From positions 12,252 to 76,251 of IMG/VR virus record IMGVR_UViG_3300011989_000011: a stretch of DNA of 64,000 nucleotides; one strand, given 5' to 3'. Source of the DNA: a virus. Its lineage: Duplodnaviria; Caudoviricetes. Positions 1,333 to 30,785 of this stretch are shown here, piece after piece. Each line of letters starts with the position of its first letter. Positions within the stretch are counted from its first letter, which is position 1. The position numbers were made by a program, and so were the translations under genes. The notes beneath the pieces were generated by a model. The model was not told the DNA's origin, searched no databases, and saw nothing but the letters and a program-made list of their open reading frames with translations.

Positions 1333-1635
1333 ATGAAAGTCTATAGTAAGACAGAAGAAAAGTGGTTGGATGTGCAACCTGTCGTTGATGTCAACACCAA
1401 CAAGGTGATTGGCTTCAAGAAGGAAGGAGGTAACGAGATTCTTTCTCCCGATCTGTTCTATGTCAAAGAGCCGATTGATTGGGACCACGTATTAGTCGAG
1501 TGCTCGATTGCGATTCTGAAAACTCACTTGCTTCGACAAGGTGTTGATTTGGGTAATATGCCATACTACTCTGACAAAGTAGTGGAGGCTGCAAAGATAT
1601 TTGTCAATGAACTTAAAGACAAGATAAGCGAATGA
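1333..1635 (+). CDS. Hypothetical protein
   Basis: 100-aa ORF with ATGA overlap to the next gene. Confidence 0.6.
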   Translation: MKVYSKTEEKWLDVQPVVDVNTNKVIGFKKEGGNEILSPDLFYVKEPIDWDHVLVECSIAILKTHLLRQGVDLGNMPYYSDKVVEAAKIFVNELKDKISE

Positions 1636-2201
1636 AGATTTTTTTGTACGATTTAGAGACCACTGGCCTCGATCCGTTAAATTGTGCCACACATCAGTTG
1701 TCGGGCAAAATCATCATCAATGGCAAGGTGATGGAGGAGTTTGATTTCCACATTCAGCCTTTCAATGGTGCTGAGATTTCACAAGAGGCCCTTGACGTGA
1801 GTGGGGTGACACGTGAGCAGCTTGCCTCCTACCCTACCGAGGAAGAAGTGTTCCCCAAGGTATTGGCAATGTGTAGCAAGTACGTTAACCGCTATGATAG
1901 AACCGATAAGTTCTATCAGTTAGGTTTCAACGTTCAGCATTTCGACAATCAGTTCTTTCGGGAAATGTGGAGCCGGAACGGGCAGCGTTTCTTCGGAAGT
2001 TACTTCTTCAGTAATTGTCTCGATGCCATGTTGCTTGCTACCCCTAAGTTGTTAACGCAACGTCCTAACATGCCTAACTTCAAGCAGAGTACGGTAGCTG
2101 AGTATTTGGGTGTAAAGATAGACGAGTCAAAACTTCACAATGCCAATTATGACATTGAGTTGACGCAAGCTATCTATGATAAGGTTTGTGGAATATACTA
2201 A
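1632..2201 (+). CDS. DEDDh 3'-5' exonuclease (DnaQ-like)
   Basis: ExoI YDLETTG, ExoII GFNVQHFD, ExoIII HNANYDI. Confidence 0.88.
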   Translation: MKIFLYDLETTGLDPLNCATHQLSGKIIINGKVMEEFDFHIQPFNGAEISQEALDVSGVTREQLASYPTEEEVFPKVLAMCSKYVNRYDRTDKFYQLGFNVQHFDNQFFREMWSRNGQRFFGSYFFSNCLDAMLLATPKLLTQRPNMPNFKQSTVAEYLGVKIDESKLHNANYDIELTQAIYDKVCGIY

Positions 2202-8409: not shown

Positions 8410-9069
8410 ATGGATATAGTACAAGAAGAAAGAGCAGATGTAAGAGCCGAAAGCAAAGGCTTCGAGAGTCTTACGACTGTAGAGTTGATTAGTCTCATCT
8501 TAGGTGGCAGTAGCTCCACTCTGATGGATCAGTCACGGCAGATTTTGAAGTTAGTGGATTGTAAGCTACCTAAACTCAGAAACGTCAGTGAGAAAGAACT
8601 AACTGCAATCAATGGTGTGGGTAGTTGCAAGGCAAAGGCACTCCTTGCAGCATTAGAGTTAGGCAAGCGTGTTTCATGTTCCAAGCATGAGACGGATAGC
8701 ATTGATTCATCGTCAGCAGTGTATAACTATCTCCACCCTCGTATGCAATTCTTAGACACGGAGGAGTTTTGGATATTGCTGATGAACAATAGCTTCAAGT
8801 TGCTGAAAGCCGAGCGCATAGGACAGGGCGGTCTGACTGATACCCCTGCTGATATTAGAATCATGATGCGTGAAGCGGTTCTGAATAACGCTACGGTAAT
8901 GGCAGTAGCCCACAATCATCCTTCGGGAACGCTCAGACCGAGCATGCAAGATGATAGGCTCACCAACCATATCAAGAAAGCGTGTGAGATAATGCGTGTA
9001 CATTTCTTGGACCACGTGATAGTAACAGACGGAGGATATTATTCATATAGAGACGAAGACAGACTATGA
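8410..9069 (+). CDS. radC: RadC family JAB/MPN-domain protein
   Basis: HhH GVGSCKA; TEEFWILL; AHNHPSGTLRPSMQD; LDHVIV. Confidence 0.93.
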   Translation: MDIVQEERADVRAESKGFESLTTVELISLILGGSSSTLMDQSRQILKLVDCKLPKLRNVSEKELTAINGVGSCKAKALLAALELGKRVSCSKHETDSIDSSSAVYNYLHPRMQFLDTEEFWILLMNNSFKLLKAERIGQGGLTDTPADIRIMMREAVLNNATVMAVAHNHPSGTLRPSMQDDRLTNHIKKACEIMRVHFLDHVIVTDGGYYSYRDEDRL

Positions 9070-12324: not shown

Positions 12325-13776
12325 ATGAAAAAGTTAAGTGAGATATTAGACCGTACCCGTCCTGTCGGAGAGATTATCTCTGATTTGGAGCAGAAGTCTA
12401 CTAAGCCGTTTTCATGGAAGAAGTTCAAGAAGGATTATTATGCTGAGAACCACCGCATAGCAGGTGACGAGTGGGGCAAGATAGACCACATCCATGAAGA
12501 CGGTACGATAGACTTTGCAGCACGTCTTCCCTTACCTATTGAGCAGTTGCTTATCAATCACCTCAATGACTTCATGCACGCTAATCCCGTCAAGAGGGAA
12601 TACTATGGCGTGGATGGCAATGAGACAAGGCAGCAGATAGTAACTGCAATCGAGAGAATATACGAGGGTGCTGACATTGATATTGTCAACATGGAGCGTG
12701 GTTTGGCTTACTTCGCTTCGGGTGAAGTGCTTACCATTTGGTATGCAGTGAAGAAAGAGAATGACGATTATGGATTCCATTCTCAGTACAAGCTAAAGTG
12801 CAAGGTCTATTCTCCTATGGAGGATGATTGCGAGTTATACCCATTGATGGACGAGAACGGTGATCTGATAGCTTTGTCTTTCAAGTATAAGAAGCGTGTC
12901 AAGGATGCGGATGTCTACTACTTTGAGTGCTATACTGCCGACAAGCATTACAAGTGGCACCAAGGCGATGTATCTCAGTGGACCGATGATATTTTCTACA
13001 CCGATGGAGAGGGTAACACTACCTATGGCGATGATATCATCTTAGGTAAGATCCCCGGCATCTACGCTTACAAGAAAGACCCGTCTGTCGCTTATGGTAC
13101 GAGCGAGCTCAGAAACGATATTGAGTATAAGACAGCCGGAGAAGCTGATACGGTAGCCTACAACTTTGCTCCTATCCTCGAAGTCAAGGGTGGCATCAAA
13201 GGCGATGAGAAGAAAGGCGAGACACGAAGGGTCATGAAGGTATCTGAGAACGGAGGTATCAACTACGTGTCTTGGAATGGCTCTACCGATGCAGTCAAGA
13301 ACCACTACGCTATCACGAAGGAGTTGATATTCATGATTAACCAAATGCCGGATATCTCCTTTGATAACATGAAGTCGTTGGGCAACATAGGTTACGATGC
13401 GAGGGTTATGATGTTCACCGATACCATCCTCAGAGTTAAGCGTGAGAGCAAGCCGTTGCTTCAAGCCTACAGACGAGAGGGAAACGTTATCAAGGCTTTC
13501 CTCAAACTGATGAACGTTGATTGGGCCTCGGAGATTGACAAGATTTGGATTAAGCACTCAATAGACATCTACATCCCGAAGGATGAGAGCGCAGAGATTG
13601 ACAAGCGTATGAAAGCCAACGGAGGTAAGCCTATCGAAAGTCAGCTTGAATCCATCCAACGTTATGGTCGAAGCAAAGACCCACAAGCCACCCTCGATGC
13701 TATCAGAAAAGAACAAGAGGATTCGCTTGGAAACACGATTAACTCATTACTCAGCAAGAGTCAAGAAAAAGAATAG
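12325..13776 (+). CDS. Portal protein (SPP1-like)
   Basis: 483 aa, upstream of MuF; resembles Bacteroidales SPP1-type portals (KCKVYSPM, YNFAPILEVKG). Confidence 0.75.
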   Translation: MKKLSEILDRTRPVGEIISDLEQKSTKPFSWKKFKKDYYAENHRIAGDEWGKIDHIHEDGTIDFAARLPLPIEQLLINHLNDFMHANPVKREYYGVDGNETRQQIVTAIERIYEGADIDIVNMERGLAYFASGEVLTIWYAVKKENDDYGFHSQYKLKCKVYSPMEDDCELYPLMDENGDLIALSFKYKKRVKDADVYYFECYTADKHYKWHQGDVSQWTDDIFYTDGEGNTTYGDDIILGKIPGIYAYKKDPSVAYGTSELRNDIEYKTAGEADTVAYNFAPILEVKGGIKGDEKKGETRRVMKVSENGGINYVSWNGSTDAVKNHYAITKELIFMINQMPDISFDNMKSLGNIGYDARVMMFTDTILRVKRESKPLLQAYRREGNVIKAFLKLMNVDWASEIDKIWIKHSIDIYIPKDESAEIDKRMKANGGKPIESQLESIQRYGRSKDPQATLDAIRKEQEDSLGNTINSLLSKSQEKE

Positions 13777-21902: not shown

Positions 21903-22324
21903 ATGGATCAGAAGCATTTGAAGCTACGATTGGCGAGTATCTGAAAGTCAGAGCCAACACAGACGAGAAGTTTGCAGAGGAAATGAAAAAGGAAGGCAAG
22001 TCCGTTCATGAGTGCTGCAACTATATCCTCAACATGGTTAAGAAGTCCGGCTGCTGCGGATTCGATGATGATGAGATTTTCAGCTTGGCAGTTCACTACT
22101 ACGATGAGGACATCACTGATAAAGCCTTGCTGAAAGAAATCAGAGGTTCGGTAGTCGTCAATCACAAGGTGGAGCTAAAGGAAGAAGATAAGGAGTCTAT
22201 CGAGGAGCAAGCCAAGAAAGACTATTATCAAGAGTGCATGAGAAAACAACGTGAAGCTAACCATCCTAAACCTAAGAAGAAGGTAGAGGTGCAGACGCCG
22301 GACTTATTTGGAGGATTGTCATGA
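21899..22324 (+). CDS. PcfK-like protein (family includes AcrIIA9)
   Basis: FEATIGEYL..KSVHECCNYI..GFDDDEIFSLAVHYYDE; adjacent to a PcfJ-like gene. Confidence 0.85.
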   Translation: MNGSEAFEATIGEYLKVRANTDEKFAEEMKKEGKSVHECCNYILNMVKKSGCCGFDDDEIFSLAVHYYDEDITDKALLKEIRGSVVVNHKVELKEEDKESIEEQAKKDYYQECMRKQREANHPKPKKKVEVQTPDLFGGLS

Positions 22325-23625
22325 AAGCAAGAACAAAGGTAGAAAAGGAGGTGATGGAGCTAAGCTCCACCCTCCCTAATCTGAGAAAGGATTCAACGAG
22401 ATATTCCAAGAAGTCGTTCTATAGGATGAAGTTTACCACTGGCCGTAAGTCATGGTGTTCTGAATGTGGGCATGAGTTCGAGGATAAAGGTCAGAGTTCA
22501 TGCCCTCACTGCCATTGCCATTTCGATCAGACGGAGCAGACAAGAAAGAAGACTGACCTCCACAATAGAGCCTACTTTGTTATCCTTGACACAAGGAATG
22601 AATGGCAGGTAATGCGCTATTTCAGAGTAGACAAGGAAAGTACAGCCGGAAAGCGAGCCAAGTTCTATAACTGGGAGGTTATGCAGCTATGGTTCACCAA
22701 AGGTCATTATGAAGTGATAGCGAGAAAGAGAAGTTTGGGGTTCTACATTGATACATTCTCCTATTGGTCTGATATGGAAATCAGAATCCCACGTATCAGC
22801 AGCAACGGCCCGCTTACGATTGAGGATATCCCATACGCATACGTTGAGAAGAAAAGCGTGCTGCCACAACTGCAAAGGTTTGAGGAAGACATCGAGCAAG
22901 AGAAATGCAAAGGATTCTATCGGAATGAGTTCTACAAGGTCTTGCTCGCACACCCAATGGCTGAGACATTGTTGAAGCAAGGTCACGAAGGTCTTCTGAG
23001 ACAGATGTTAGATTACGGTATGATGAGGAAGGAATACTTTGATGCGGTGAAGATCGCCCTAAGAAACCACTACGATATATTCAGCCAAGACACCACCATG
23101 TGGCTTGATATGGTCGAAGCCCTAATCTATCTAAGGAAGGATGTTCACAACGCATTTTATGTATGTCCTAAGGATCTACAGAAGTCTCATGACAGATGGA
23201 TTAAACTCGCTGAAAGAAAACGCAAGGAAGCCTATGATAAGGCTGCTGAGAAACGTAAGCTGAACATCCTCAAACGAGACAAGAAGATAGCTGAGAACTA
23301 CGAGAAGTCGCACATGAAGTTTCTTGGCTTCAAGTTGGATGATGGTACCGTTGTTATCAAGGTTCTGCCTACGGTTGAAGCCTTCAAGGAAGAAGCCGAT
23401 GAAATGCACCACTGCGTTTTTGCTAATGGCTATTACAAGAAGCCGAATAGCCTTATCATGTCGGCAAGGGTCGAGGGTAAACGCCAAGAGACTGTAGAGG
23501 TCAATCTGAGAGACTTCACATTGGTACAGTCGAGAGGTCACTGCAACCAACCCTCACCTTACCATGACGAGATAGTTAAGTTGGTTGAATCACACATGAA
23601 AGAAATCAAGAAGGTGGCATTATAG
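22321..23625 (+). CDS. PcfJ-like protein
   Basis: Zn ribbon CSECGH..CPHC; C-terminal EEADEMHHCVFANGYY..ETVEVNL..QSRGHCN. Confidence 0.88.
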   Translation: MKARTKVEKEVMELSSTLPNLRKDSTRYSKKSFYRMKFTTGRKSWCSECGHEFEDKGQSSCPHCHCHFDQTEQTRKKTDLHNRAYFVILDTRNEWQVMRYFRVDKESTAGKRAKFYNWEVMQLWFTKGHYEVIARKRSLGFYIDTFSYWSDMEIRIPRISSNGPLTIEDIPYAYVEKKSVLPQLQRFEEDIEQEKCKGFYRNEFYKVLLAHPMAETLLKQGHEGLLRQMLDYGMMRKEYFDAVKIALRNHYDIFSQDTTMWLDMVEALIYLRKDVHNAFYVCPKDLQKSHDRWIKLAERKRKEAYDKAAEKRKLNILKRDKKIAENYEKSHMKFLGFKLDDGTVVIKVLPTVEAFKEEADEMHHCVFANGYYKKPNSLIMSARVEGKRQETVEVNLRDFTLVQSRGHCNQPSPYHDEIVKLVESHMKEIKKVAL

Positions 23626-23717: not shown

Positions 23718-24119
23718 ATGAAAGTTTACACAAGTTATTTCGCAAACGGCAAGAAGTTGCATGAAGCCGGAATCATGATGATCGGCATTGCACTTTTCCC
23801 ACCGAAATGGTTTTATGGGGTGTCGTTGCAGCAAGTAGCTCCTACCAATTCAATCCTTCACGAGGATACGGAAGAAAGGTACGTTGAGCGGTTTAAGAAT
23901 GAGGTCTTGGCAAAGGTTGACCCCAAAGAGTTCATTGAAAACGTGATGACATTCAGCAAGGGCAAAGATGTTGCTCTATGCTGCTTTGAAAAGCCGGGTG
24001 ATTTCTGCCATAGGCATTTGGTTGCCGATTGGCTGAATGAAAAGTTAGGCTTGGGGGTCGAGGAATTTGGTGTTAAGGTTTCGAAGAATCCTCATTACAC
24101 CGAAGGAAGCCTATTTTAA
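23718..24119 (+). CDS. DUF488-family protein
   Basis: MKVYTSYF, LAPT-like VAPT, ALCCFEKPGDFCHRHLVADWL. Confidence 0.75.
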   Translation: MKVYTSYFANGKKLHEAGIMMIGIALFPPKWFYGVSLQQVAPTNSILHEDTEERYVERFKNEVLAKVDPKEFIENVMTFSKGKDVALCCFEKPGDFCHRHLVADWLNEKLGLGVEEFGVKVSKNPHYTEGSLF

Positions 24120-24186
24120 GCTTATTACGATTCCACATAAATGGCAAAGCGGAAAGACGCTTGACAGAAGGACAGACTTCTTCAAT

Positions 24187-24258
24187 GCGTGTGTGGTCTA
24201 TCGGTTAGGACGCTGCACTTCTAGTACGGAAAGATAGGTTCGACTCCTTTCACACGCT
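24187..24258 (+). tRNA. Atypical tRNA: Glu-type body with UCU anticodon
   Basis: Acceptor GCGTGTG/CACACGC; D arm GTCT-ATCGGTTA-GGAC; loop CTTCTAG; 4-nt variable region; T loop TTCGACT; one mismatch each in the anticodon and T stems; no CCA. Confidence 0.7.
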
Positions 24259-24265
24259 CTAATTT

Positions 24266-24338
24266 GCGTGGATAGCTCAGTTAGTAGAGCGGTGTTCCTC
24301 CAGAACGCAGGTCGTTGGTGCGGGTCCAACTCCACGCT
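24266..24338 (+). tRNA. Atypical tRNA-Gly(UCC)
   Basis: Acceptor GCGTGGA/TCCACGC with U73; D stem GCTC/GAGC; loop CCTCCAG; T stem GTTGG/CCAAC; T loop TGCGGGT is non-canonical. Confidence 0.75.
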
Positions 24339-24431
24339 CATGAGCTCAATATGATACGATTAAAAGATTAGAACGGGTTATCTGAAAGACGTTTGAGAGG
24401 CGTGTAATGTAAGAGACCTGTTCTTTATTAT

Positions 24432-24550
24432 CTCCGAGTTAGTTCAAAGCGCTATGCTCGCAATCGGTAACACGAGGGTCGGTAGCAGAGGTGTGGTAGA
24501 ATAACCCCAACACGTGAGGGGCGATGGTGGTTCGAATCCCCATTCGGAGG
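24432..24550 (+). ncRNA. tRNA-like element with a ~47-nt insertion in the D loop
   Basis: CTCCGAG/TTCGGAG stem; GTTC..GGTA-GAAT D arm split by a hairpin; GG-TTCGAAT-CC T loop; irregular anticodon arm. Confidence 0.4.
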
Positions 24551-24560
24551 CTATTAAGGA

Positions 24561-25286
24561 ATGTTGCCAATGATAGATGTTTTTAGTCCCGATTGCTTGT
24601 TTCCGACAGACAACAATTTGGAGATACCCGAATTGAGGTCGGATATGCAAGCTGAGTTCTGCGAGATACCTTTTGTGTGTTTCGGAGAAACGGCAAGGAC
24701 ATATCAGATGAAAGGCACGGGAACACTCCATTTCTACACTGATGATTATAGGTTCAATAGTCTGTACGACCATCCCGATAAGATATTGCGGATGGACCCG
24801 TCAAACATCGTTGAGCCTAATTACAGCGTTTTCACTGACACACCTATCGCATTTGGCTTGCAAGCTATCTACAGAAAACGTTGGATAGCGAGGATGATGC
24901 AAGAACATGGTATAAGAGTCTTCGTTGATCTGAATGTCGCTCCTAAGTATTACCAAGTCAATCTGTACGGAGTGCCACAAGGTTGGCGCAGTTTCTGCAC
25001 GAGAGGTTCTGAAGACAGAATGAGCCAACTTGACAACGAGTTCAACCTTGCAAAAATGCGTAGGGGCGGTGATGATATCTTATTCGTTTGCTATGGTGGT
25101 GGCGAGAAATGTCGGGAATGGTGCCAAGTTCATCATGCCGTATATGTCAATCCTCTCATCAACTACAAGAATAGTATTAAGCAGAAGAAAGAACTCTATA
25201 GGCAAGGTGTTTTCTTCTTTCAAGATGATATACCCGTAAAGACTGTAGAAAAGAAACAAGTTTACGACTATGCAGACCGACTTTGA
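24561..25286 (+). CDS. DUF4417-family protein
   Basis: HFYTDDYRF, VEPNYSVFTD, RWIARMMQEHGIRVFVDL. Confidence 0.7.
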   Translation: MLPMIDVFSPDCLFPTDNNLEIPELRSDMQAEFCEIPFVCFGETARTYQMKGTGTLHFYTDDYRFNSLYDHPDKILRMDPSNIVEPNYSVFTDTPIAFGLQAIYRKRWIARMMQEHGIRVFVDLNVAPKYYQVNLYGVPQGWRSFCTRGSEDRMSQLDNEFNLAKMRRGGDDILFVCYGGGEKCREWCQVHHAVYVNPLINYKNSIKQKKELYRQGVFFFQDDIPVKTVEKKQVYDYADRL

Positions 25287-27339
25287 ACGTACTTTTGGAA
25301 TTGAGATAGAAATGTGCAATGTAGACAGAGGGAAGATTTCTCTGCCTAATGGCTATTCGTGGTCTAAAGACGAAAGTATATTCAATACGGATGGCAAATC
25401 AAGCAAACATTTTGGTGGAGAGATAAATACTCCTCCACTCCACTTATGTCAGAGAGATAGGAAAGACTTGCGTGACATCTATTCAGACTTGAAAGACAAC
25501 GGAGGAAAAATAAAATGGAGCATTGATACCCATGTTCACATCTATGCAGGTGACCTTACGTTGGATCAGTTGAAGAATATCTTCTATCTTCTTTATTGGG
25601 ATTACAAATTTGTCAAGAGGTATTGCCATATTGCCGATTGGGATGAAATGGTCTTTAACGCTCAGCCACTTCCAACGGAAAACAAATATGATTTGGTAAA
25701 GAGAGCTGCTTCGTTATTTGATTTGGAGCATGCTTTTACCAATCAATCCAAGAAGAGTTATCTCAGATTAGCAATCAATATAGCTTCTTATTTTGTAAGG
25801 AAGACTATAGAGTTCAGATGCTTCCATGCTACAGATAATTTTGAACTTGTTGAGAATTGTGTAATAGCTTCATATAGAATGTTCAACTTTGCAGTTACTC
25901 ATACCGAAGACGAAATTAAATCCATATCTTCTTATGATGAATTTTGCGCAAAGTTAAAGCTACATAGAGAAACGCCTCCAACTCTCACTCCGTTGATTTA
26001 TCAAGGCAACCCATATAGTAGCATAGAGACGTTTATGACGAACTCTCTTCCCTACAACTCTAAGCAAGCATCATTGCTATACGAAGCTATCCAAAAGAAT
26101 AAGCATACGGATATATGCGTTGTCAATGGTTTCATGTATTATTACGAGCTATTCCTATTGGATAAGATAAATGTGTCTATCTATTGCCAAGACGCTTATT
26201 GTTATCTGCTCTATCTGATAGCCAACGGAAAAGTTTGCCTTACATACAAGGATCGCCTTGAATGGTTGGAGGATTACAATGATAAATCGGTTAAGAGCCA
26301 GCTTGCCCTTGCTCTGTATGCTTCAAGCCTACAGAAGTTTCTTATGAGCAAGAGTTCTCGAAACGATGCAATCATAGAATCGCTTAAAATCAAGGCAAAA
26401 GAGTCTATTGAGAAGATAAAGATATCGAATGATAGACTTCTTCGATTGCTCACCACATGCGAGTTTAAGGTTGGGACCTTGCAAGATGCTATCAAAGACA
26501 AGCAGGTCATATTTTTCAACTACGGAGAAGATAAGAAGCAGAAGCGCACATTCAAACTCATCCAAGAGTGCAGTGATTTGGATTTGAACTTTGACCTAAA
26601 GCGTAATGATTATTACGACTTAGTAGAGAGCCTTCCGCAATCATCTTACTTCTACTATTTCAGCAATAGTCCGTTTCTGAGCAATATGCACAAGCTCGCT
26701 ATGATAAAATCATCGAATGGCGATAGGCGTTCTGCAGGCCGTTTCCTCTATTGCAATAAGCCCACACCCGTCAATGATGTCTGCACATCATACAAGGAGT
26801 CGTTTGTCGATGTCAACGAGATAGTTCCGCCGGATGATTTGGTTATTGACGACCCTAAAAAATTGAAGATTGCCAAATGCAATTCAAGCTATCTCTATTG
26901 CTTGCAGAAGAAGTATATCAAGAAAGTTGATATGGTAAGCAGGTGCACCTATGCTTTCGTTGTCATGTATGACAAGTACACACTCGGAGGTTTTGGATTC
27001 ACCCTACCTCAGCATAAAGGCTATGATCTGTTTCAGTTGACAGATTTCTGCACCAACAATGAGATACCACGTCTGAGTAAACTGATATTGGTTTGCATCC
27101 AATCGGTAAGGGTTCAGATGGAGTTAAGCAGACGTATGCACAAACTATGTGAGAAGGTTATTTCATGTGCCTATACCCATAAGCCTGTAAGCATGAAGTA
27201 CAGAGGTATCTACAAGAAAGTGAAGGAACACTGCACATCATCTTACCTTGCCTACGAAGGTGTTCTTGGGCAGTATGCAGATAACAAGGCTATCATTGCT
27301 AAATATCAAAATCTTTGTAAGAATGGGAACAGAAGATAG
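25270..27339 (+). CDS. Fusion protein: amidoligase (COOH-NH2 ligase), degenerate methyltransferase-like region, Mom-like GNAT
   Basis: N-terminal RTFGIEIEM, GEINTPPL, THVH, TIEFRCFHAT (Amidoligase_2 pattern); C-terminal YAFVVMYD..LGGFGF..LTDF..PRLSKL..AYTHKPVSMKYRG. Confidence 0.65.
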   Translation: MQTDFERTFGIEIEMCNVDRGKISLPNGYSWSKDESIFNTDGKSSKHFGGEINTPPLHLCQRDRKDLRDIYSDLKDNGGKIKWSIDTHVHIYAGDLTLDQLKNIFYLLYWDYKFVKRYCHIADWDEMVFNAQPLPTENKYDLVKRAASLFDLEHAFTNQSKKSYLRLAINIASYFVRKTIEFRCFHATDNFELVENCVIASYRMFNFAVTHTEDEIKSISSYDEFCAKLKLHRETPPTLTPLIYQGNPYSSIETFMTNSLPYNSKQASLLYEAIQKNKHTDICVVNGFMYYYELFLLDKINVSIYCQDAYCYLLYLIANGKVCLTYKDRLEWLEDYNDKSVKSQLALALYASSLQKFLMSKSSRNDAIIESLKIKAKESIEKIKISNDRLLRLLTTCEFKVGTLQDAIKDKQVIFFNYGEDKKQKRTFKLIQECSDLDLNFDLKRNDYYDLVESLPQSSYFYYFSNSPFLSNMHKLAMIKSSNGDRRSAGRFLYCNKPTPVNDVCTSYKESFVDVNEIVPPDDLVIDDPKKLKIAKCNSSYLYCLQKKYIKKVDMVSRCTYAFVVMYDKYTLGGFGFTLPQHKGYDLFQLTDFCTNNEIPRLSKLILVCIQSVRVQMELSRRMHKLCEKVISCAYTHKPVSMKYRGIYKKVKEHCTSSYLAYEGVLGQYADNKAIIAKYQNLCKNGNRR

Positions 27340-28051
27340 ATGGAAATATGCCAAGGTCGATATTAATCTTATCGACAATGCAGAGTTGAACGCCAACGAA
27401 ATGACTGATGAAGATTACGCTCAGTTGCGTGACAACATCAGTAAGTCCGGCCTTAGCAGTGTGCCTGCTTGCTATAAGAAAGCTAATGGTCGCTATGTGA
27501 TGATTAGCGGTCACCATAGGTTGGCAGCGTGCAAGGAACTCCACTACAAGACTATTGGCATTTTGTGGTGTTGGGAGAGTGAAATGACCCAAGACGAGAT
27601 TATCGCTACGCAGCTATCCCATAACTCGCTTCACGGCCATGACAATCAGAGCATCTTGAAGAAGTTGTTTGAGCAAATCCATTCAGTAGACTACAAGCAG
27701 TTTGCCCACGTAAACATGGATGAGATAAAACCTGTCAGCACGGATGGTATTAGTGTCTTCGCCATGAAAGAGAATTTCGTCTTCACGGTTATCCTCTACC
27801 CCGATTCATTCGAGAGTTTGGATGAGTTGTTTGGAGACATCAGAGAGCAAGCAAAGAAAAGCGATGCCCTTATCCTTGCAAGTGAGGAGGACAATGAAAA
27901 GAACCTCCTTAAACTGCAAACGGAGATAGGCAAGGAGTATGATATCAAATCTCCAAGCATCACATTCGCCAAGTTGTTGGAGTTGGCAAAGGAACGTTTA
28001 ATCGAATTAAGAGACAAGAAAGATGATTTGGATAATAATGACAAAAAGTGA
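27323..28051 (+). CDS. ParB/Srx-like domain protein
   Basis: NAELNANEM..LRDNISKSG..YVMISGHHRLAACKELH. Confidence 0.85.
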   Translation: MGTEDRWKYAKVDINLIDNAELNANEMTDEDYAQLRDNISKSGLSSVPACYKKANGRYVMISGHHRLAACKELHYKTIGILWCWESEMTQDEIIATQLSHNSLHGHDNQSILKKLFEQIHSVDYKQFAHVNMDEIKPVSTDGISVFAMKENFVFTVILYPDSFESLDELFGDIREQAKKSDALILASEEDNEKNLLKLQTEIGKEYDIKSPSITFAKLLELAKERLIELRDKKDDLDNNDKK

Positions 28052-28901
28052 TAAGGAGACTTACATCCTCCCTCACAAAGCAATACAGATAACAGAAGCT
28101 CTTGGGAAGAATAATCTGAAAGTCGTTTCAGTAAATAATGGTAACGAGGTTTATATGCTCGGTATCAAGAAAGATGATATTGTTATCTCAGAGACACGTA
28201 ACGAAGGGGTCAATTTTGCTATTACTGAGATTTGCCGAGCTAACACTGTAGAAAGTAAAGAGACTATTCGCTTAACTAAGGATAAAGAGGCTGTTAAGCC
28301 TCTGCTTGCTGATGCTAACATACCTTATCCAAAATCTTATAGATACGATGAAGCAGAGGAAGGACATTGTTATTTCGTCAAGCCGAAGTTTGGTGAAGAT
28401 AGCAATATGATAGATGAAAGTTCGATCTGCCATAATGCTCGAGAAGTCCGCATAAAGTATCGTAAGTTAGTATCAGCAGGATGTAAGCCTATAATAGAAG
28501 ACTACATTTACGGAGACGATTATACTGTAGCAGTAGCCAAATGCAATGATTTGTTATGCTTTCCTATCAAGGTAAATCTTCTGCATAGCTCCATAATGAC
28601 ACATAAGGCCAAGTGGGATGAAGATGAGTTCTGCGAAGTTCCAGATTGTGGCGAGTTCGAAGAATTGAAACGATTAACTGCAAAGGCTTTCGATGCCGTT
28701 GGATGTAAACATTACATGAGGATAGATTTTCGCAAGGGTAATGATGGTAAGTTCTATCTGATAGACCTCAATCTGTTCCCCGGTCTTGGTCCAACAGACC
28801 ATTTTGCAAAGTGTTTAGCTCTCAATGGCGATTTGAGCTACAAGCAGATATTGAATACTATTATATACACTACGGGAGGAAATCTATATGGGTTGCGTTA
28901 A
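28038..28901 (+). CDS. ATP-grasp ligase (D-Ala-D-Ala ligase/RimK-like)
   Basis: TKDKEAVK..IPYP, FVKPKFGEDS, IIEDYI.G.DYTV, RIDFR, LIDLNLFPGL. Confidence 0.88.
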   Translation: MTKSDKETYILPHKAIQITEALGKNNLKVVSVNNGNEVYMLGIKKDDIVISETRNEGVNFAITEICRANTVESKETIRLTKDKEAVKPLLADANIPYPKSYRYDEAEEGHCYFVKPKFGEDSNMIDESSICHNAREVRIKYRKLVSAGCKPIIEDYIYGDDYTVAVAKCNDLLCFPIKVNLLHSSIMTHKAKWDEDEFCEVPDCGEFEELKRLTAKAFDAVGCKHYMRIDFRKGNDGKFYLIDLNLFPGLGPTDHFAKCLALNGDLSYKQILNTIIYTTGGNLYGLR

Positions 28902-29247
28902 CAGAACAAAGAAAATCACCAACGAGGAGATTGCCACAATGTACGAGAAGAAAGGTGGCAATGTCTCAGCTACGTGTACTGCCTTGGGAATGGATCGCAA
29001 AACATTCTATAACCGCAAGGAGAAGAATAAAGCACTCAGAGACAAGATTAACGAGACGGATGAGAGCCTTATCGACTTTGCGGAGTCAAAGCTGATGGAA
29101 CACATCAATGATGGCGATGTAACATCACTGATATTCTTCCTAAAGACCAAAGGTAAGAAACGTGGATATGTTGAAAGGGTCGAGAACGAGATTAGTGGAA
29201 ACGCTTTCGAGAACCTTATGAAAGAGGTTACGGGTGAGGATAGTTAA
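28888..29247 (+). CDS. terS: Terminase small subunit (HTH)
   Basis: GNVSATCTALGMDRKTFY..DFAESKL..IFFLKTKGKKRGY, directly before TerL. Confidence 0.8.
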   Translation: MGCVNRTKKITNEEIATMYEKKGGNVSATCTALGMDRKTFYNRKEKNKALRDKINETDESLIDFAESKLMEHINDGDVTSLIFFLKTKGKKRGYVERVENEISGNAFENLMKEVTGEDS

Positions 29248-29270: not shown

Positions 29271-30785
29271 ATGTCGAGCGTAGCAGTAAAGAACAAAATG
29301 CGTGAATGGCGTAATGATTGGAATCTGTTTATCAAGGAGGTCCTAAAGGCTGACCTTGACAAGGAGCAGAAAGCTATTGTTGATGCCGTTCAGCATAATA
29401 AGATGGTAGCAGTAGCTTCGGGAACCGCACGGGGAAAAGACTTCGTAGCGGCTTGCTGTGCTATGTGCTTTCTCTATCTCACTCCTACATTCGACAAGGA
29501 AGGTAATTTGGTAGGCAATACCAAGGTTGCCATGACAGCCCCAACAGATCGACAGGTGGGTAACATCATGGTGCCGGAGATTCGAAGACTTTTCAAGCAC
29601 GCAAAGGTACTGCCCGGCCGTTTCGTTGCTCATGACATAAGAACTGATTACGAAGAATGGTTCTTGACGGGTTTCAAGGCAGGTGATGATAACACTGAGG
29701 CATGGTCGGGTTTCCATGCAGTGAACACCATGTTCGTAGTAACGGAGGCATCGGGTATCAGTGAGACGGTGTACAATGCTATCGAAGGTAACTTGCAAGG
29801 TAACTCACGAATATTGTTAGTATTCAACCCTAACATCAATATGGGTTACGCTGCAAGGGCAATGACACAAGCACGTTTCAAGCATTTCAGACTTAACTCC
29901 CTCGATGCGGAGAATGTCGTGGAGAAGCGTATCGTGCACCCCGGCCAAGTAGACTATGACTGGGTGAAAGATAAGGTTGAGAACTGGTGTGAGCCTATCC
30001 AACAATCAGACTTCGATGAAGGGTTGGGAGATTTTACTTGGGAGGGTAAGACCTATCGCCCTAATGATCTGTTTCGTGTCAAGGTGTTGGGATTGTTCCC
30101 GAAGGTCAGCGAAGACGTACTCATCCCCTACGAATGGATCGAGCGTGCCAACCTACGATGGAAGCAAAAGGTCGAAAGCGGTTACAAGCCAAGGACACAA
30201 GCACTCGTTGGTATGGATGTGGCAGGTATGGGTAGAGATTCATCAGTTCTCTGTCCACGCTATCGTAACTTTGTTTCCAAGTTCGATGTTCATCAGTCGG
30301 GAGGTAAGGCAGACCACATGCACGTAGCCGGAATGGGTGCCAACTATCTCCGTGCTCACAAGAAGACGTTGTTGTTCATTGATACCATAGGCGAGGGTGC
30401 AGGTGTCTACTCACGATTGGAAGAGTTAGGATTCGATGAAAGAATATACTCAGCCAAGAATAGTGAGAGTGCTAAGGGTCTTCACGATGTCACGGGAGAA
30501 TACACCTTTGCTAACATGAGGGCTTATCTGATGTGGTGTGTTAGGGATTGGCTCAACCCTAAGAACGGCTTCAACGCTTGCCTCCCACCATGCGATCAGT
30601 TTGCAGAGGAAGCCACATCTACCAAGTGGAAGTTCCTCAGTAGTGGTAGTATCATCATAGAGCCAAAGGAAGATATTAAGGCAAAGATAGGTCGCTCGCC
30701 GGACTATATGGATGCGTTGGCTTACACGTTCTATCCTAACTACAATAATTTGGATGCGAAAGCCATTTTGAATAAAGTGTTATAG
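29271..30785 (+). CDS. terL: Terminase large subunit
   Basis: Walker A-like VASGTARGKD; Walker B-like FVVTEASG; nuclease GMDVAGMGRD..RSPDYMDAL. Confidence 0.93.
   Translation: MSSVAVKNKMREWRNDWNLFIKEVLKADLDKEQKAIVDAVQHNKMVAVASGTARGKDFVAACCAMCFLYLTPTFDKEGNLVGNTKVAMTAPTDRQVGNIMVPEIRRLFKHAKVLPGRFVAHDIRTDYEEWFLTGFKAGDDNTEAWSGFHAVNTMFVVTEASGISETVYNAIEGNLQGNSRILLVFNPNINMGYAARAMTQARFKHFRLNSLDAENVVEKRIVHPGQVDYDWVKDKVENWCEPIQQSDFDEGLGDFTWEGKTYRPNDLFRVKVLGLFPKVSEDVLIPYEWIERANLRWKQKVESGYKPRTQALVGMDVAGMGRDSSVLCPRYRNFVSKFDVHQSGGKADHMHVAGMGANYLRAHKKTLLFIDTIGEGAGVYSRLEELGFDERIYSAKNSESAKGLHDVTGEYTFANMRAYLMWCVRDWLNPKNGFNACLPPCDQFAEEATSTKWKFLSSGSIIIEPKEDIKAKIGRSPDYMDALAYTFYPNYNNLDAKAILNKVL

Follow-up and report, generated by a model that had tools for sequence, protein, structure and literature searches.

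A candidate Mom-like module for tRNA-dependent DNA hypermodification, with glycine-type tRNAs of its own, upstream of the terminase genes of a gut phage

To our knowledge, tRNA-dependent modification of DNA has one characterised example, the Mom protein of phage Mu, which relies on a host tRNA. Mom moves glycine from Gly-tRNAGly to the N6 of adenine in double-stranded DNA, giving N6-carbamoylmethyl-dA (PMC13219725); the use of glycyl-tRNA, mentioned in an earlier note on the DNA described here, is indeed in the published record (PMC13219725; bioRxiv 10.1101/2023.03.24.534169). The staphylococcal tRNAGly species that serve FemXAB/FmhB (PMC4574755, PMC7826273) bypass the ribosome and go to an aminoacyl transferase of the GNAT fold, and the non-proteinogenic tRNAGly of S. 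aureus used by the Fem transferases lacks G18/G19 and U55/C56 (PMC4574755). A phage DNA-modifying enzyme can be activated on double-stranded DNA by cognate ParB homologs (PMC13229309), as in the T-dioxygenase pair 5mYOX176/ParB176, whose ParB is required on that substrate.

The locus analysed here lies in a window (the whole stretch of DNA that was analysed, 64,000 nucleotides) from a gut phage, and resembles each of these systems in part. Like Mom, it has a GNAT fold and the position of a late phage function adjoining packaging or late genes; the involvement of a glycine-specific tRNA is suggested by linked tRNA-Gly-like genes, and adenine is the likely target, given a Dam-like domain. Unlike Mom, with which it shares no sequence homology, its GNAT lacks an HTH-like insertion and is instead fused in cis to the Dam-like domain; the system co-occurs with, or needs, ParB and DUF488 proteins; the phage brings donor-like tRNAs of its own where Mu uses the host's; and an additional amidoligase and ATP-grasp ligase imply a larger adduct. 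The likeness to staphylococcal tRNAGly, drawn from sequence, is that GlyRS identity is retained and the elbow deviates. In that system, however, chromosomal tRNAs deliver glycine to a peptidoglycan precursor, whereas here they are virus-encoded and the presumed acceptor is DNA; and the RNAs linked to such modules, unlike the staphylococcal ones, often lack U33, or have A34 or truncated D-arms. With 5mYOX176/ParB176 the locus appears, to judge from its genes, to share the plan of a post-replicative phage DNA modifier with a cognate ParB-like partner, although that enzyme has a different fold and oxidises thymine by Fe/2OG chemistry. (Genes of a 5-hmdU-type thymidine pathway were sought among ten large upstream ORFs, and there were none.)

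The window's proteins are clear members of the Pfam families DAM-like-phage1/2, GNAT-phage-like and DUF488-N3a, for which we know of no experimentally established function. In the literature searched, we found no report that connects these families with Mom's mechanism or with genes for tRNA-Gly-like RNAs.

The gene run and its conserved core

Every element of the run was confirmed with Pfam, PHROG, ARAGORN and Rfam, on the + strand and upstream of the packaging genes (Table 1), and the earlier note's gene list, with its unbroken overlap from DUF4417 onward, stands as to content and position. Successive overlaps from DUF4417 to terS are 17, 17, 29 and 14 nt. The modification module is transcriptionally coupled to the packaging genes and is predicted to be expressed late. 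Cultured phages yielded no megablast match and only weak, partial tblastn matches; stretches matching the enzyme family number more than 500 in IMG/VR, and 264 in bacterial and archaeal genomes sampled at one genome per species.

Table 1. Features of the modification module and the adjoining terminase genes (positions in the window)
Feature	Position	Strand	Evidence
DUF488-N3a protein, 133 aa	23718..24119	+	Pfam PF22751 2.7e-11
First tRNA: Gly scaffold, anticodon UCU	24187..24259	+	ARAGORN; Rfam RF00005 46.4 bits; CM R1 65 bits
Second tRNA: atypical tRNA-Gly(UCC), "type A"	24266..24339	+	ARAGORN; Rfam RF00005 (both tRNAs 46-47 bits)
DUF4417 protein, 241 aa	24561..25286	+	Pfam 8.7e-33; phrog_940 "nuclease"
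Amidoligase_2/Dam-like/GNAT fusion protein, whole	25270..27339	+	Pfam, three domains
Fusion, N-terminal Amidoligase_2 domain, residues 1-236	25270..25977	+	PF12224 5.6e-11
Fusion, Dam-like domain (DAM-like-phage2), residues ~237-520	25978..26829	+	PF22556 3.2e-89
Fusion, GNAT-phage-like domain, residues ~521-689	26830..27339	+	PF22559 7.9e-40
ParB-like protein, 242 aa, true start 27323	27323..28051	+	phrog_7405 1.4e-72
Ddl-like ATP-grasp ligase, 292 aa	28023..28901	+	Dala_Dala_lig_C 7.8e-14; PDB Ddl 8evy_B 5.1e-9
Small terminase subunit terS	28888..29247	+	phrog_309 1.6e-9
Large terminase subunit terL	29271..30785	+	phrog_2 3.5e-31

For comparison, some 250 related loci were taken from three samples; the 80 sister loci belong to a single phage family, many of them coming from one metagenome, and counts among them are therefore not independent. 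What is conserved across loci is a core of DUF488, the joined Dam-like and GNAT-phage-like domains, and ParB, and the order DUF488-enzyme-ParB beside the terminase persists down to 23% identity. DUF488-N3a, with an invariant C88 and FCHRHL motif, stands upstream in 77/80 sisters and in every distant fusion locus with enough flanking sequence; the ParB-like gene is present in all 80 sisters, next to the enzyme gene, its product carrying an invariant ISG[NH]HR and an N-terminal homology to ParB (phrogs at 1e-10 to 1e-72; ParB_N Pfam matches in homologs). We propose this protein, by analogy, as a candidate activator or DNA-loading subunit. In the short family, in which DAM-like-phage1 is joined to GNAT, ParB follows immediately downstream in 79/80 loci and DUF488 is found in 53/80; several ORFs neighbouring these loci have no Pfam match. 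The widespread minimal form is Dam-like+GNAT, ParB and DUF488, free of ligases.

The remaining partners (amidoligase, ATP-grasp, opine dehydrogenase, DUF4417) are lineage-specific. The ATP-grasp ligase is present in 80/80 sisters and in the distant loci L087 and L088, and missing from L082, L085 and L086; an opine dehydrogenase is found in 64/80 sister loci. Opine dehydrogenases act on free amino groups, and an amino-acid adduct would fit them for that reason. DUF4417, which had been counted as a component of the system, is not part of the core: it occurs in 53/80 sisters, mostly between terS and terL, and is probably an accessory, mobile nuclease-like gene in a variable slot.

The fusion protein and its resemblance to Mom

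The three domains of the fusion protein score above Pfam's curated cutoffs (GNAT-phage-like 136.8, DAM-like-phage2 297.9 and Amidoligase_2 43.2 bits, against 27, 27 and 22). In the N-terminal domain E12, E14, H90, R166, E181 and R183 are invariant in the homolog alignment, and the fold matches 1tt4/1r8g (VIA Z 11.1-11.5); judged by this catalytic set and fold, it is an ATP-dependent carboxylate-amine ligase of the GS/GCL/YbdK-like type. The middle domain aligns with E. coli Dam (2g1p/4rtj; VIA Z 10.4, rmsd 4.8, 188 aa), and across 24 homologs its residues 237-520 hold no conserved FxGxG (motif I), no DPPY (motif IV) and no invariant residue. This Rossmann-fold domain is apparently dead as a methyltransferase, and is proposed as a candidate DNA-binding or adenine-presenting module.

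The GNAT domain, modelled as a compact 150-aa unit (pLDDT 96.8), has invariant residues G573, D592, S641-M-K-Y-R-G646 and Y662 among 55 sequences of both architectures. Mom (8bv8) is its first-ranking structural match by Foldseek and VIA-align (Z 10.9, rmsd 2.9, 134 aa), and came out on top again in a second search of 48,161 chains (Z 10.6, rmsd 3.2, 137 aa). Mom leads generic GNATs by less than 1 Z unit; this best match, which agrees with the earlier note's appeal to Mom-family GNATs, is a virtual tie. At beta4-alpha3 the Q/RxxGxG/A CoA-pyrophosphate motif is missing, and the sequence there is DFCTNNEIPRLSKL.

Homology to Mom was not detected at the level of sequence: a 24-sequence profile aligned to Mu Mom gave an hhalign probability of 0.1% (E 0.58), phmmer and profile searches of the PDB produced no Mom match (the profile search of PDB sequences returned only spurious polyubiquitin), and the PHROG matches, 2443/7858, are other than the Mom phrog. 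The HTH-like insertion essential in Mom (residues ~175-209) has no counterpart in the GNAT-only model. Mom's catalytic set is R111, S124 and R151; the invariant residues here include D592, S641, K643, Y644, R645 and Y662. By analogy, the domain is proposed as a candidate aminoacyl (glycyl) transferase.

Must the product of such a module be a DNA base? It might instead be a peptide or metabolite made in a tRNA-dependent way, or a packaging-linked modification of a protein or of DNA ends. Enzymes of the DUF488 clade are reportedly predicted to process nucleic-acid ends, which counts in favour of this alternative, as does the membership of Amidoligase_2, ATP-grasp and GNAT in families of known peptide and amide ligases; peptidoglycan precursors and natural products, moreover, are among the substrates of tRNA-dependent GNAT-fold enzymes (PMC13219725). 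The widespread minimal form, however, has no ligases, the Dam fold and ParB both point to duplex DNA, and the short family has an FPPTY motif where Dam has the DPPY of its adenine pocket. We regard a product other than a DNA base as unlikely.

The tRNA-Gly-like RNAs

The two tRNAs of Table 1 are the only ones in the entire 76-kb phage genome. A Gly- plus a Glu-type pair had been expected; neither is of Glu type, the anticodons reading Arg(UCU) and Gly(UCC) on scaffolds that are both those of tRNA-Gly. Elongator tRNAs keep U33 for decoding and G18-G19 and T54-Psi55-C56 at the elbow. The second tRNA, with C33 for U33, A18 for G18 and a T-loop of UGCGGGU (G55, G58), departs from these invariants and is as atypical as it had been called; its type A scaffold recurs in 71/80 sister loci. 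The first has G1-C72, C2-G71 and G3-C70 (a GCG:CGC acceptor), U73 and a canonical elbow, and its UCU anticodon is UCC in a 99% twin phage. Set against the bacterial Gly identity set (G1-C72, C2-G71, U73, C35 and C36; PMC9976931), both cloverleaves fit, with the single exception of U36 instead of C36 in the first, which should, on its sequence, hamper charging by GlyRS; the second has the set intact and does not encode CCA. A third tRNA-like stretch (24440-24555) was discarded: the covariance model matches an 11-nt T-loop alone and the fold z-score is 0.19.

Among the 80 sisters, tRNAs occupy the same spot in every locus and are Gly-type in 76. Genes for tRNA-Gly-like RNAs adjoin the GNAT gene in most members of the clade to which the window belongs, and two unrelated samples show the same in roughly 20-30% of their loci: by covariance model, Gly-like elements lie immediately upstream of that gene in ~18/80 environmental viral loci (more within 1 kb) and in 16/80 loci of prophages spanning many phyla, and they occur as well in the distant fusion loci L086, L088 and L089. 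Generic tRNAs of the same loci (Met, Arg, Gln) are non-adjacent and do not follow the Gly-like pattern. The co-occurrence that the earlier note asked to have checked is accordingly found in three samples, as a frequent and not a universal association. A degenerate acceptor-stem regex was too noisy for counting (34% of upstream windows matched, against 16-25% of control windows); it also exposed clear extra elements in L105-L107.

The RNAs linked to the module fold as genuine tRNAs: 95% of cells are paired, and covariation is 0.73 against 0.20 in shuffled alignments, a value that 0/500 shuffles equalled. Acceptor pairs 1-3 are frozen as GCG:CGC in 33/34 elements while pairs 4-7 covary; C35 is invariant, C36 and U73 are each conserved in at least 90%, and U73-CCA is encoded in 21/29. 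What has been given up lies elsewhere. Elbows (A18/G55) or D-arms are degenerate, with D-arms truncated in some; N34 among the 73 unique elements is U in 33, A in 25, C in 14 and G in 1; and some elements, reduced to ~67 nt with G33/A34, still have the GlyRS identity elements and CCA. With the GlyRS identity set retained and decoding features lost, the sequences suggest charging without decoding.

One could nonetheless take these RNAs for ordinary translation tRNAs or relics of tRNA islands, linked to the module by shared ancestry, with the GNAT using acyl-CoA or some other donor. Unrelated tRNAs (fMet, Asn, Lys, Ser, Arg) occupy this position in rumen sisters, which makes it a general site of tRNA insertion as well; phage tRNA is absent from L081, L082, L085, L087, L002, L003, L018 and L043, which have the same enzymes, and from about two in every three loci of the short family, and must for that reason be dispensable; AGA is the phage's commonest Arg codon (29%); and CoA-using generic GNATs nearly equal Mom's score. 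Against this, unrelated phages and prophages from many phyla repeatedly show the adjacency, with an RNA that is almost always Gly-type; U33 is present in 31 of the 73 unique elements (42%) and absent from 58%; the ACC anticodon is common and GCC nearly absent; D-arms are truncated while CCA is encoded; a Gly codon bias was looked for in the phage genome and not seen; and there is the missing CoA-pyrophosphate motif. On balance we think ordinary tRNAs an improbable explanation. An origin as attP or integration remnants was rejected: the tRNAs are full-length, covarying, mid-operon and recurrent beside the GNAT gene. (The phage's integrase-like gene lies far from the pair.)

Alternatively, the RNA might be target or regulator and not donor: a substrate of TacT-like acylation of Gly-tRNAGly, a decoy, an RNase P/Z signal or a charging sensor. 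TacT recognises Gly-tRNAGly through U73 and G71, the same positions that are frozen here (PMC9976931), and the elements form part of the operon transcript, lying after DUF488 and before the enzyme gene. In the loci compared, however, the GNAT is always fused to the Dam-like fold, paired with ParB and beside the terminase, and the conservation of C35/C36 together with an encoded CCA argues for charging; a mere processing signal is disfavoured, since these are needed for charging and not for processing. The odds on a target or regulator seem to us poor.

A proposed mechanism, and what it would mean

We favour, at a probability of roughly 55%, a late phage module that hypermodifies DNA in a Mom-like, tRNA-dependent way and has donor tRNAs dedicated to it. 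Its observed basis is gene content, folds, conservation of catalytic residues, the recurrent linkage of Gly-type tRNAs and the features of the RNAs; which donor is used, which base is targeted, how the steps follow one another, what product results and what DUF488 contributes are what we infer. 1) The two adjacent tRNA genes would supply dedicated donors, charged by the host GlyRS; that the two glycine tRNAs look unfit for translation suggests a phage supplying its own tRNA for glycine attachment, and since such tRNAs would be charged by GlyRS and yet be ill-suited to the ribosome, glycine would be channelled to DNA modification. 2) As Mom does in Mu, the GNAT domain would take glycine off glycyl-tRNA and transfer it to a base in DNA, most likely to N6 of an adenine that the apparently dead Dam-like domain presents, with ParB aiding the enzyme on double-stranded DNA; DNA, and adenine in it, are put forward as the target on domain analogy and gene position. 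3) The amidoligase domain of the fusion, together with the Ddl-like ATP-grasp ligase, would then extend the glycyl adduct through ATP-dependent amide bonds, and the product would be a peptide-like base larger than Mu's.

A broader generalisation is offered more tentatively, at somewhat less than even odds: that phages of many bacterial phyla use dedicated, non-decoding tRNA-Gly-like RNAs as private glycine carriers, that Dam-like/GNAT enzymes, unrelated to Mom in sequence, aminoacylate DNA, and that in the present phage the ligases build a peptide-like chain.

If true, this would place chemistry related to Mom's in a far larger and taxonomically broader enzyme family, and would provide phages with private tRNA-like cofactors that have kept their synthetase identity and shed their ribosomal function: the first virus-encoded non-ribosomal tRNA cofactor, together with a new class of hypermodified base. 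Such cofactors would amount to a natural experiment on the minimal substrate of GlyRS and of the transferase. From the added ligases and opine dehydrogenases one would predict new DNA bases that carry peptides or opines, and bases so decorated would bear on evasion of restriction and CRISPR, on sequencing artefacts in the gut virome, and on tools for site-specific derivatisation of DNA.

The module beside the terminase

The phage genome containing the window is a single contig of 76,251 bp; the annotation given to its relatives is Bacteroidales or Caudoviricetes. The gene run that the earlier note read upstream of the terminase is present with all its elements, and starting at DUF4417 neighbouring genes overlap by 14-29 nt; that observation is therefore confirmed.

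Features of the window and their occurrence in sister loci (80 loci from this phage family in IMG/VR, with fusion proteins 60-99% and terL 63-71% identical; counts inside this clade are phylogenetically redundant)
Feature	Position	Strand	Sister loci
RNase T-like exonuclease	1632-2201		
RadC-like JAB gene	8410-9069		
SPP1-type portal	12325-13776		
PcfJ-like	22321-23625	+	
DUF488-N3a	23718-24119	+	77/80
tRNA, type B	24187-24259	+	
tRNA, type A	24266-24339	+	
DUF4417	24561-25286	+	53/80 (absent 27/80)
Fusion, 689 aa	25270-27339	+	80/80
ParB-like	27323-28051	+	80/80
ATP-grasp, D-Ala-D-Ala-ligase type	28023-28901	+	80/80
terS	28888-29247	+	79/80
terL	29271-30785	+	

The portal gene lies ~16 kb upstream of terL, an unusual separation; the ORF after it encodes 1056 aa and matches no Pfam family. 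PcfJ-like proteins are also found 5' of DUF488 in sisters L001, L016, L030, L034 and L051 and in a 35%-identity lineage (L088:992-2278); perhaps they, too, belong to the system, if only loosely linked to it.

DUF4417 is a mobile accessory because its usual site is between terS and terL, where most sisters carry it; in the window its place is after the tRNAs and before the fusion. Its behaviour is that of a mobile or homing gene of the nuclease type. (In some sisters it is split into two ORFs, as at L010:9973-10750.) The slot before the fusion that DUF4417 fills in the window is occupied in 64/80 sisters by an opine (octopine/nopaline) dehydrogenase-like gene (L010:4920-5987; also L087:5896-6984, in a 50%-identity lineage), which the window is missing. 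Its presence or absence suggests different final adducts among close phage relatives.

A search of 1.8 billion representatives yielded ~30 full-length fusions at 23-50% identity. Even at 23-30%, DUF488-N3a, fusion and ParB_N adjoin the terminase, with ATP-grasp present or not. There is also a shorter architecture of ~440 aa, DAM-like-phage1 plus GNAT-phage-like with no amidoligase (the short family), which shares an invariant SMKYRG motif with the fusion and has FPPTY at the place of Dam's DPPY. IMG/VR holds 543 stretches that match it, and prokaryotic genomes sampled at one per species hold 264; its hosts range over Streptomyces, Planctomycetota, Chloroflexota, Syntrophia, Bacillota, Gammaproteobacteria and one Methanobacterium MAG. 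A homologous ParB lies directly downstream in 79/80 short-family loci, and DUF488 upstream in 53/80. Thus the core system is DUF488 + [Dam-like + GNAT] + ParB, and the window is an extended variant of it. (The short protein with ParB also occurs on contigs of an archaeal Methanobacterium MAG, L182, and of a CPR bacterium, the Paceibacterota MAG L209; binning errors are possible.)

The fusion protein and Mom

An AlphaFold model of the fusion from 24 homologs (pLDDT 87.9), followed by fold searches, resolves three domains: 1) Residues 1-236 are a YbdK/GCL/glutamine-synthetase-like carboxylate-amine ligase (Z 11.1-11.5) with invariant catalytic residues E12, E14, H90, R166, E181 and R183. 2) Residues ~259-498 have the fold of E. 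coli Dam (Z 10.4, rmsd 4.8, 188 aa); across the 24 homologs this domain has no conserved SAM motif, no DPPY and no invariant residue, and it is therefore probably a dead methyltransferase retained for DNA handling. 3) Residues ~526-668 are a GNAT. (One distant homolog, the 873-aa P0147, has two GNAT domains in a single protein, with a canonical acetyltransferase, Acetyltransf_1/3, N-terminal to its amidoligase and GNAT-phage-like domains.)

Modelled separately from 55 sequences (pLDDT 96.8), the GNAT domain has Mom of phage Mu as its top match among 48,161 PDB representatives (chain 8bv8_B, with Z 10.6, rmsd 3.2 and 137 aa aligned). Generic GNATs come next at Z 10.2 and 9.9, a gap that the search tool counts as a tie. 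The customary CoA-pyrophosphate motif is missing from the domain's beta4-alpha3 segment. Since profile-to-sequence comparison detects no similarity to Mom and the domain lacks Mom's essential HTH-like insertion, it falls by sequence outside the Mom family, in the separate GNAT family PF22559. PF22559 GNATs may work like Mom. Mom transfers glycine from Gly-tRNAGly to adenine N6 in dsDNA, with subsequent on-base rearrangement (PMC13219725; bioRxiv 10.1101/2023.03.24.534169), which confirms the earlier note's tentative statement that Mu Mom uses glycyl-tRNA. The Mom paper (PMC13219725) makes no mention of phage-encoded donor tRNAs, and a literature search found no paper tying DUF488, DUF4417 or the module's Pfam families to tRNA genes.

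Candidate donor RNAs

The two tRNAs of the module are the only ones in the whole phage genome, whose use of glycine codons shows nothing unusual. Sister loci have tRNAs at this position in 80/80 cases, Gly-type in 76/80, on two scaffolds: type A (acceptor GCGGAGA/UCUCCGC, U73, D-loop AGUUAGnA with A18, T-loop UGCnnnU with G55) and type B, with a canonical elbow. Since the window's type B anticodon is UCU and that of its 99% twin L070 is UCC, this RNA is a Gly scaffold in which C36 has become U, neither a Glu nor a true Arg tRNA. The earlier note's interpretation is thus supported in part: for the proposed Gly-type donor, but not for the Glu-type one. The 220 nt 3' of the tRNAs (24340-24560) contain a perfect T-loop-like GGUUCGAAUCC at 24529-24539; ARAGORN, Rfam and a custom model find no tRNA there, and the fold is not significant (z 0.19). 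The stretch may be a decayed tRNA.

In rumen relatives unrelated tRNAs also occupy this site. A third scaffold (5' UAGCAGU...ACUGCG 3'; L003:2736-2808, L007:4587-4662, L042:4714-4785, L043:4500-4572, L044:4737-4811) keeps a similar body while its anticodon varies by phage (GUU, GAU, GCU, CCU); these sisters also encode an initiator-like tRNA-Met with a C1-A72 mismatch.

Because the 80 sister loci are one family, 34 sequences were used to build a covariance model, which was applied to independent samples. Of 80 diverse environmental viral short-family loci, 18 have a Gly-like element no more than ~100 nt upstream of the GNAT gene (7 more within 1 kb), and of 80 prophage loci from many phyla, 16 have one within 250 nt upstream, so that the co-occurrence across phages proposed as a check is borne out. 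Distant fusion loci L086, L088 and L089 have the element; L081, L082, L085 and L087 do not. Met, Arg and Gln tRNAs in the independent samples are non-adjacent and without the Gly-like pattern.

In the 34 sequences of the model the cloverleaf is 95% paired, with covariation of 0.73 versus 0.20 for shuffled sequences (0/500 shuffles as high); acceptor pairs 1-3 are frozen and pairs 4-7 covary. U73-CCA is encoded in 21/29 elements. The GCC anticodon is the major one for Gly in bacteria, which hardly use ACC. Among 73 unique elements N33 is U 31, G 20, C 14, A 8 and N34 is U 33, G 1, C 14, A 25; GCC is therefore nearly absent and ACC common. Many D-arms are truncated. An A18/G55 elbow turns up again in L137, L142, L145 and L199, all unrelated loci. 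The features needed by the ribosome are relaxed; those common to the elements are the set read by GlyRS (G1-C72, C2-G71, U73, C35, C36; PMC9976931). The non-proteinogenic tRNAGly of S. aureus that supply the GNAT-fold Fem transferases lack G18/G19 and U55/C56 (PMC4574755), elbow positions at which module elements with A18/G55 likewise deviate.

A proposed pathway

How might the parts work together? Host GlyRS would charge the phage RNAs, and the GNAT domain would move their glycine onto a DNA base; given the Dam-like domain, N6 of adenine is the favoured candidate. ParB would assist on duplex DNA: a phage ParB homolog has been shown to activate, on dsDNA, the DNA-modifying enzyme with which it is paired (PMC13229309). 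Further amide bonds on the adduct would come from the amidoligase and the Ddl-like ligase, and in sister phages an opine dehydrogenase would alkylate a free amine. Of the partners DUF488 is the most constant, with an invariant C...FCHRHL motif. According to a reported prediction, enzymes of its clade work on the sugar or phosphate groups at RNA or DNA ends; action on the tRNA 3' end, a speculation, would be compatible with this.

Many lineages can dispense with a phage-encoded tRNA; there the host's tRNAGly could be the donor, as for Mom. Comparison of the loci argues strongly for a widespread tRNA-dependent modification system, Mom-like yet distinct, with dedicated donor RNAs.
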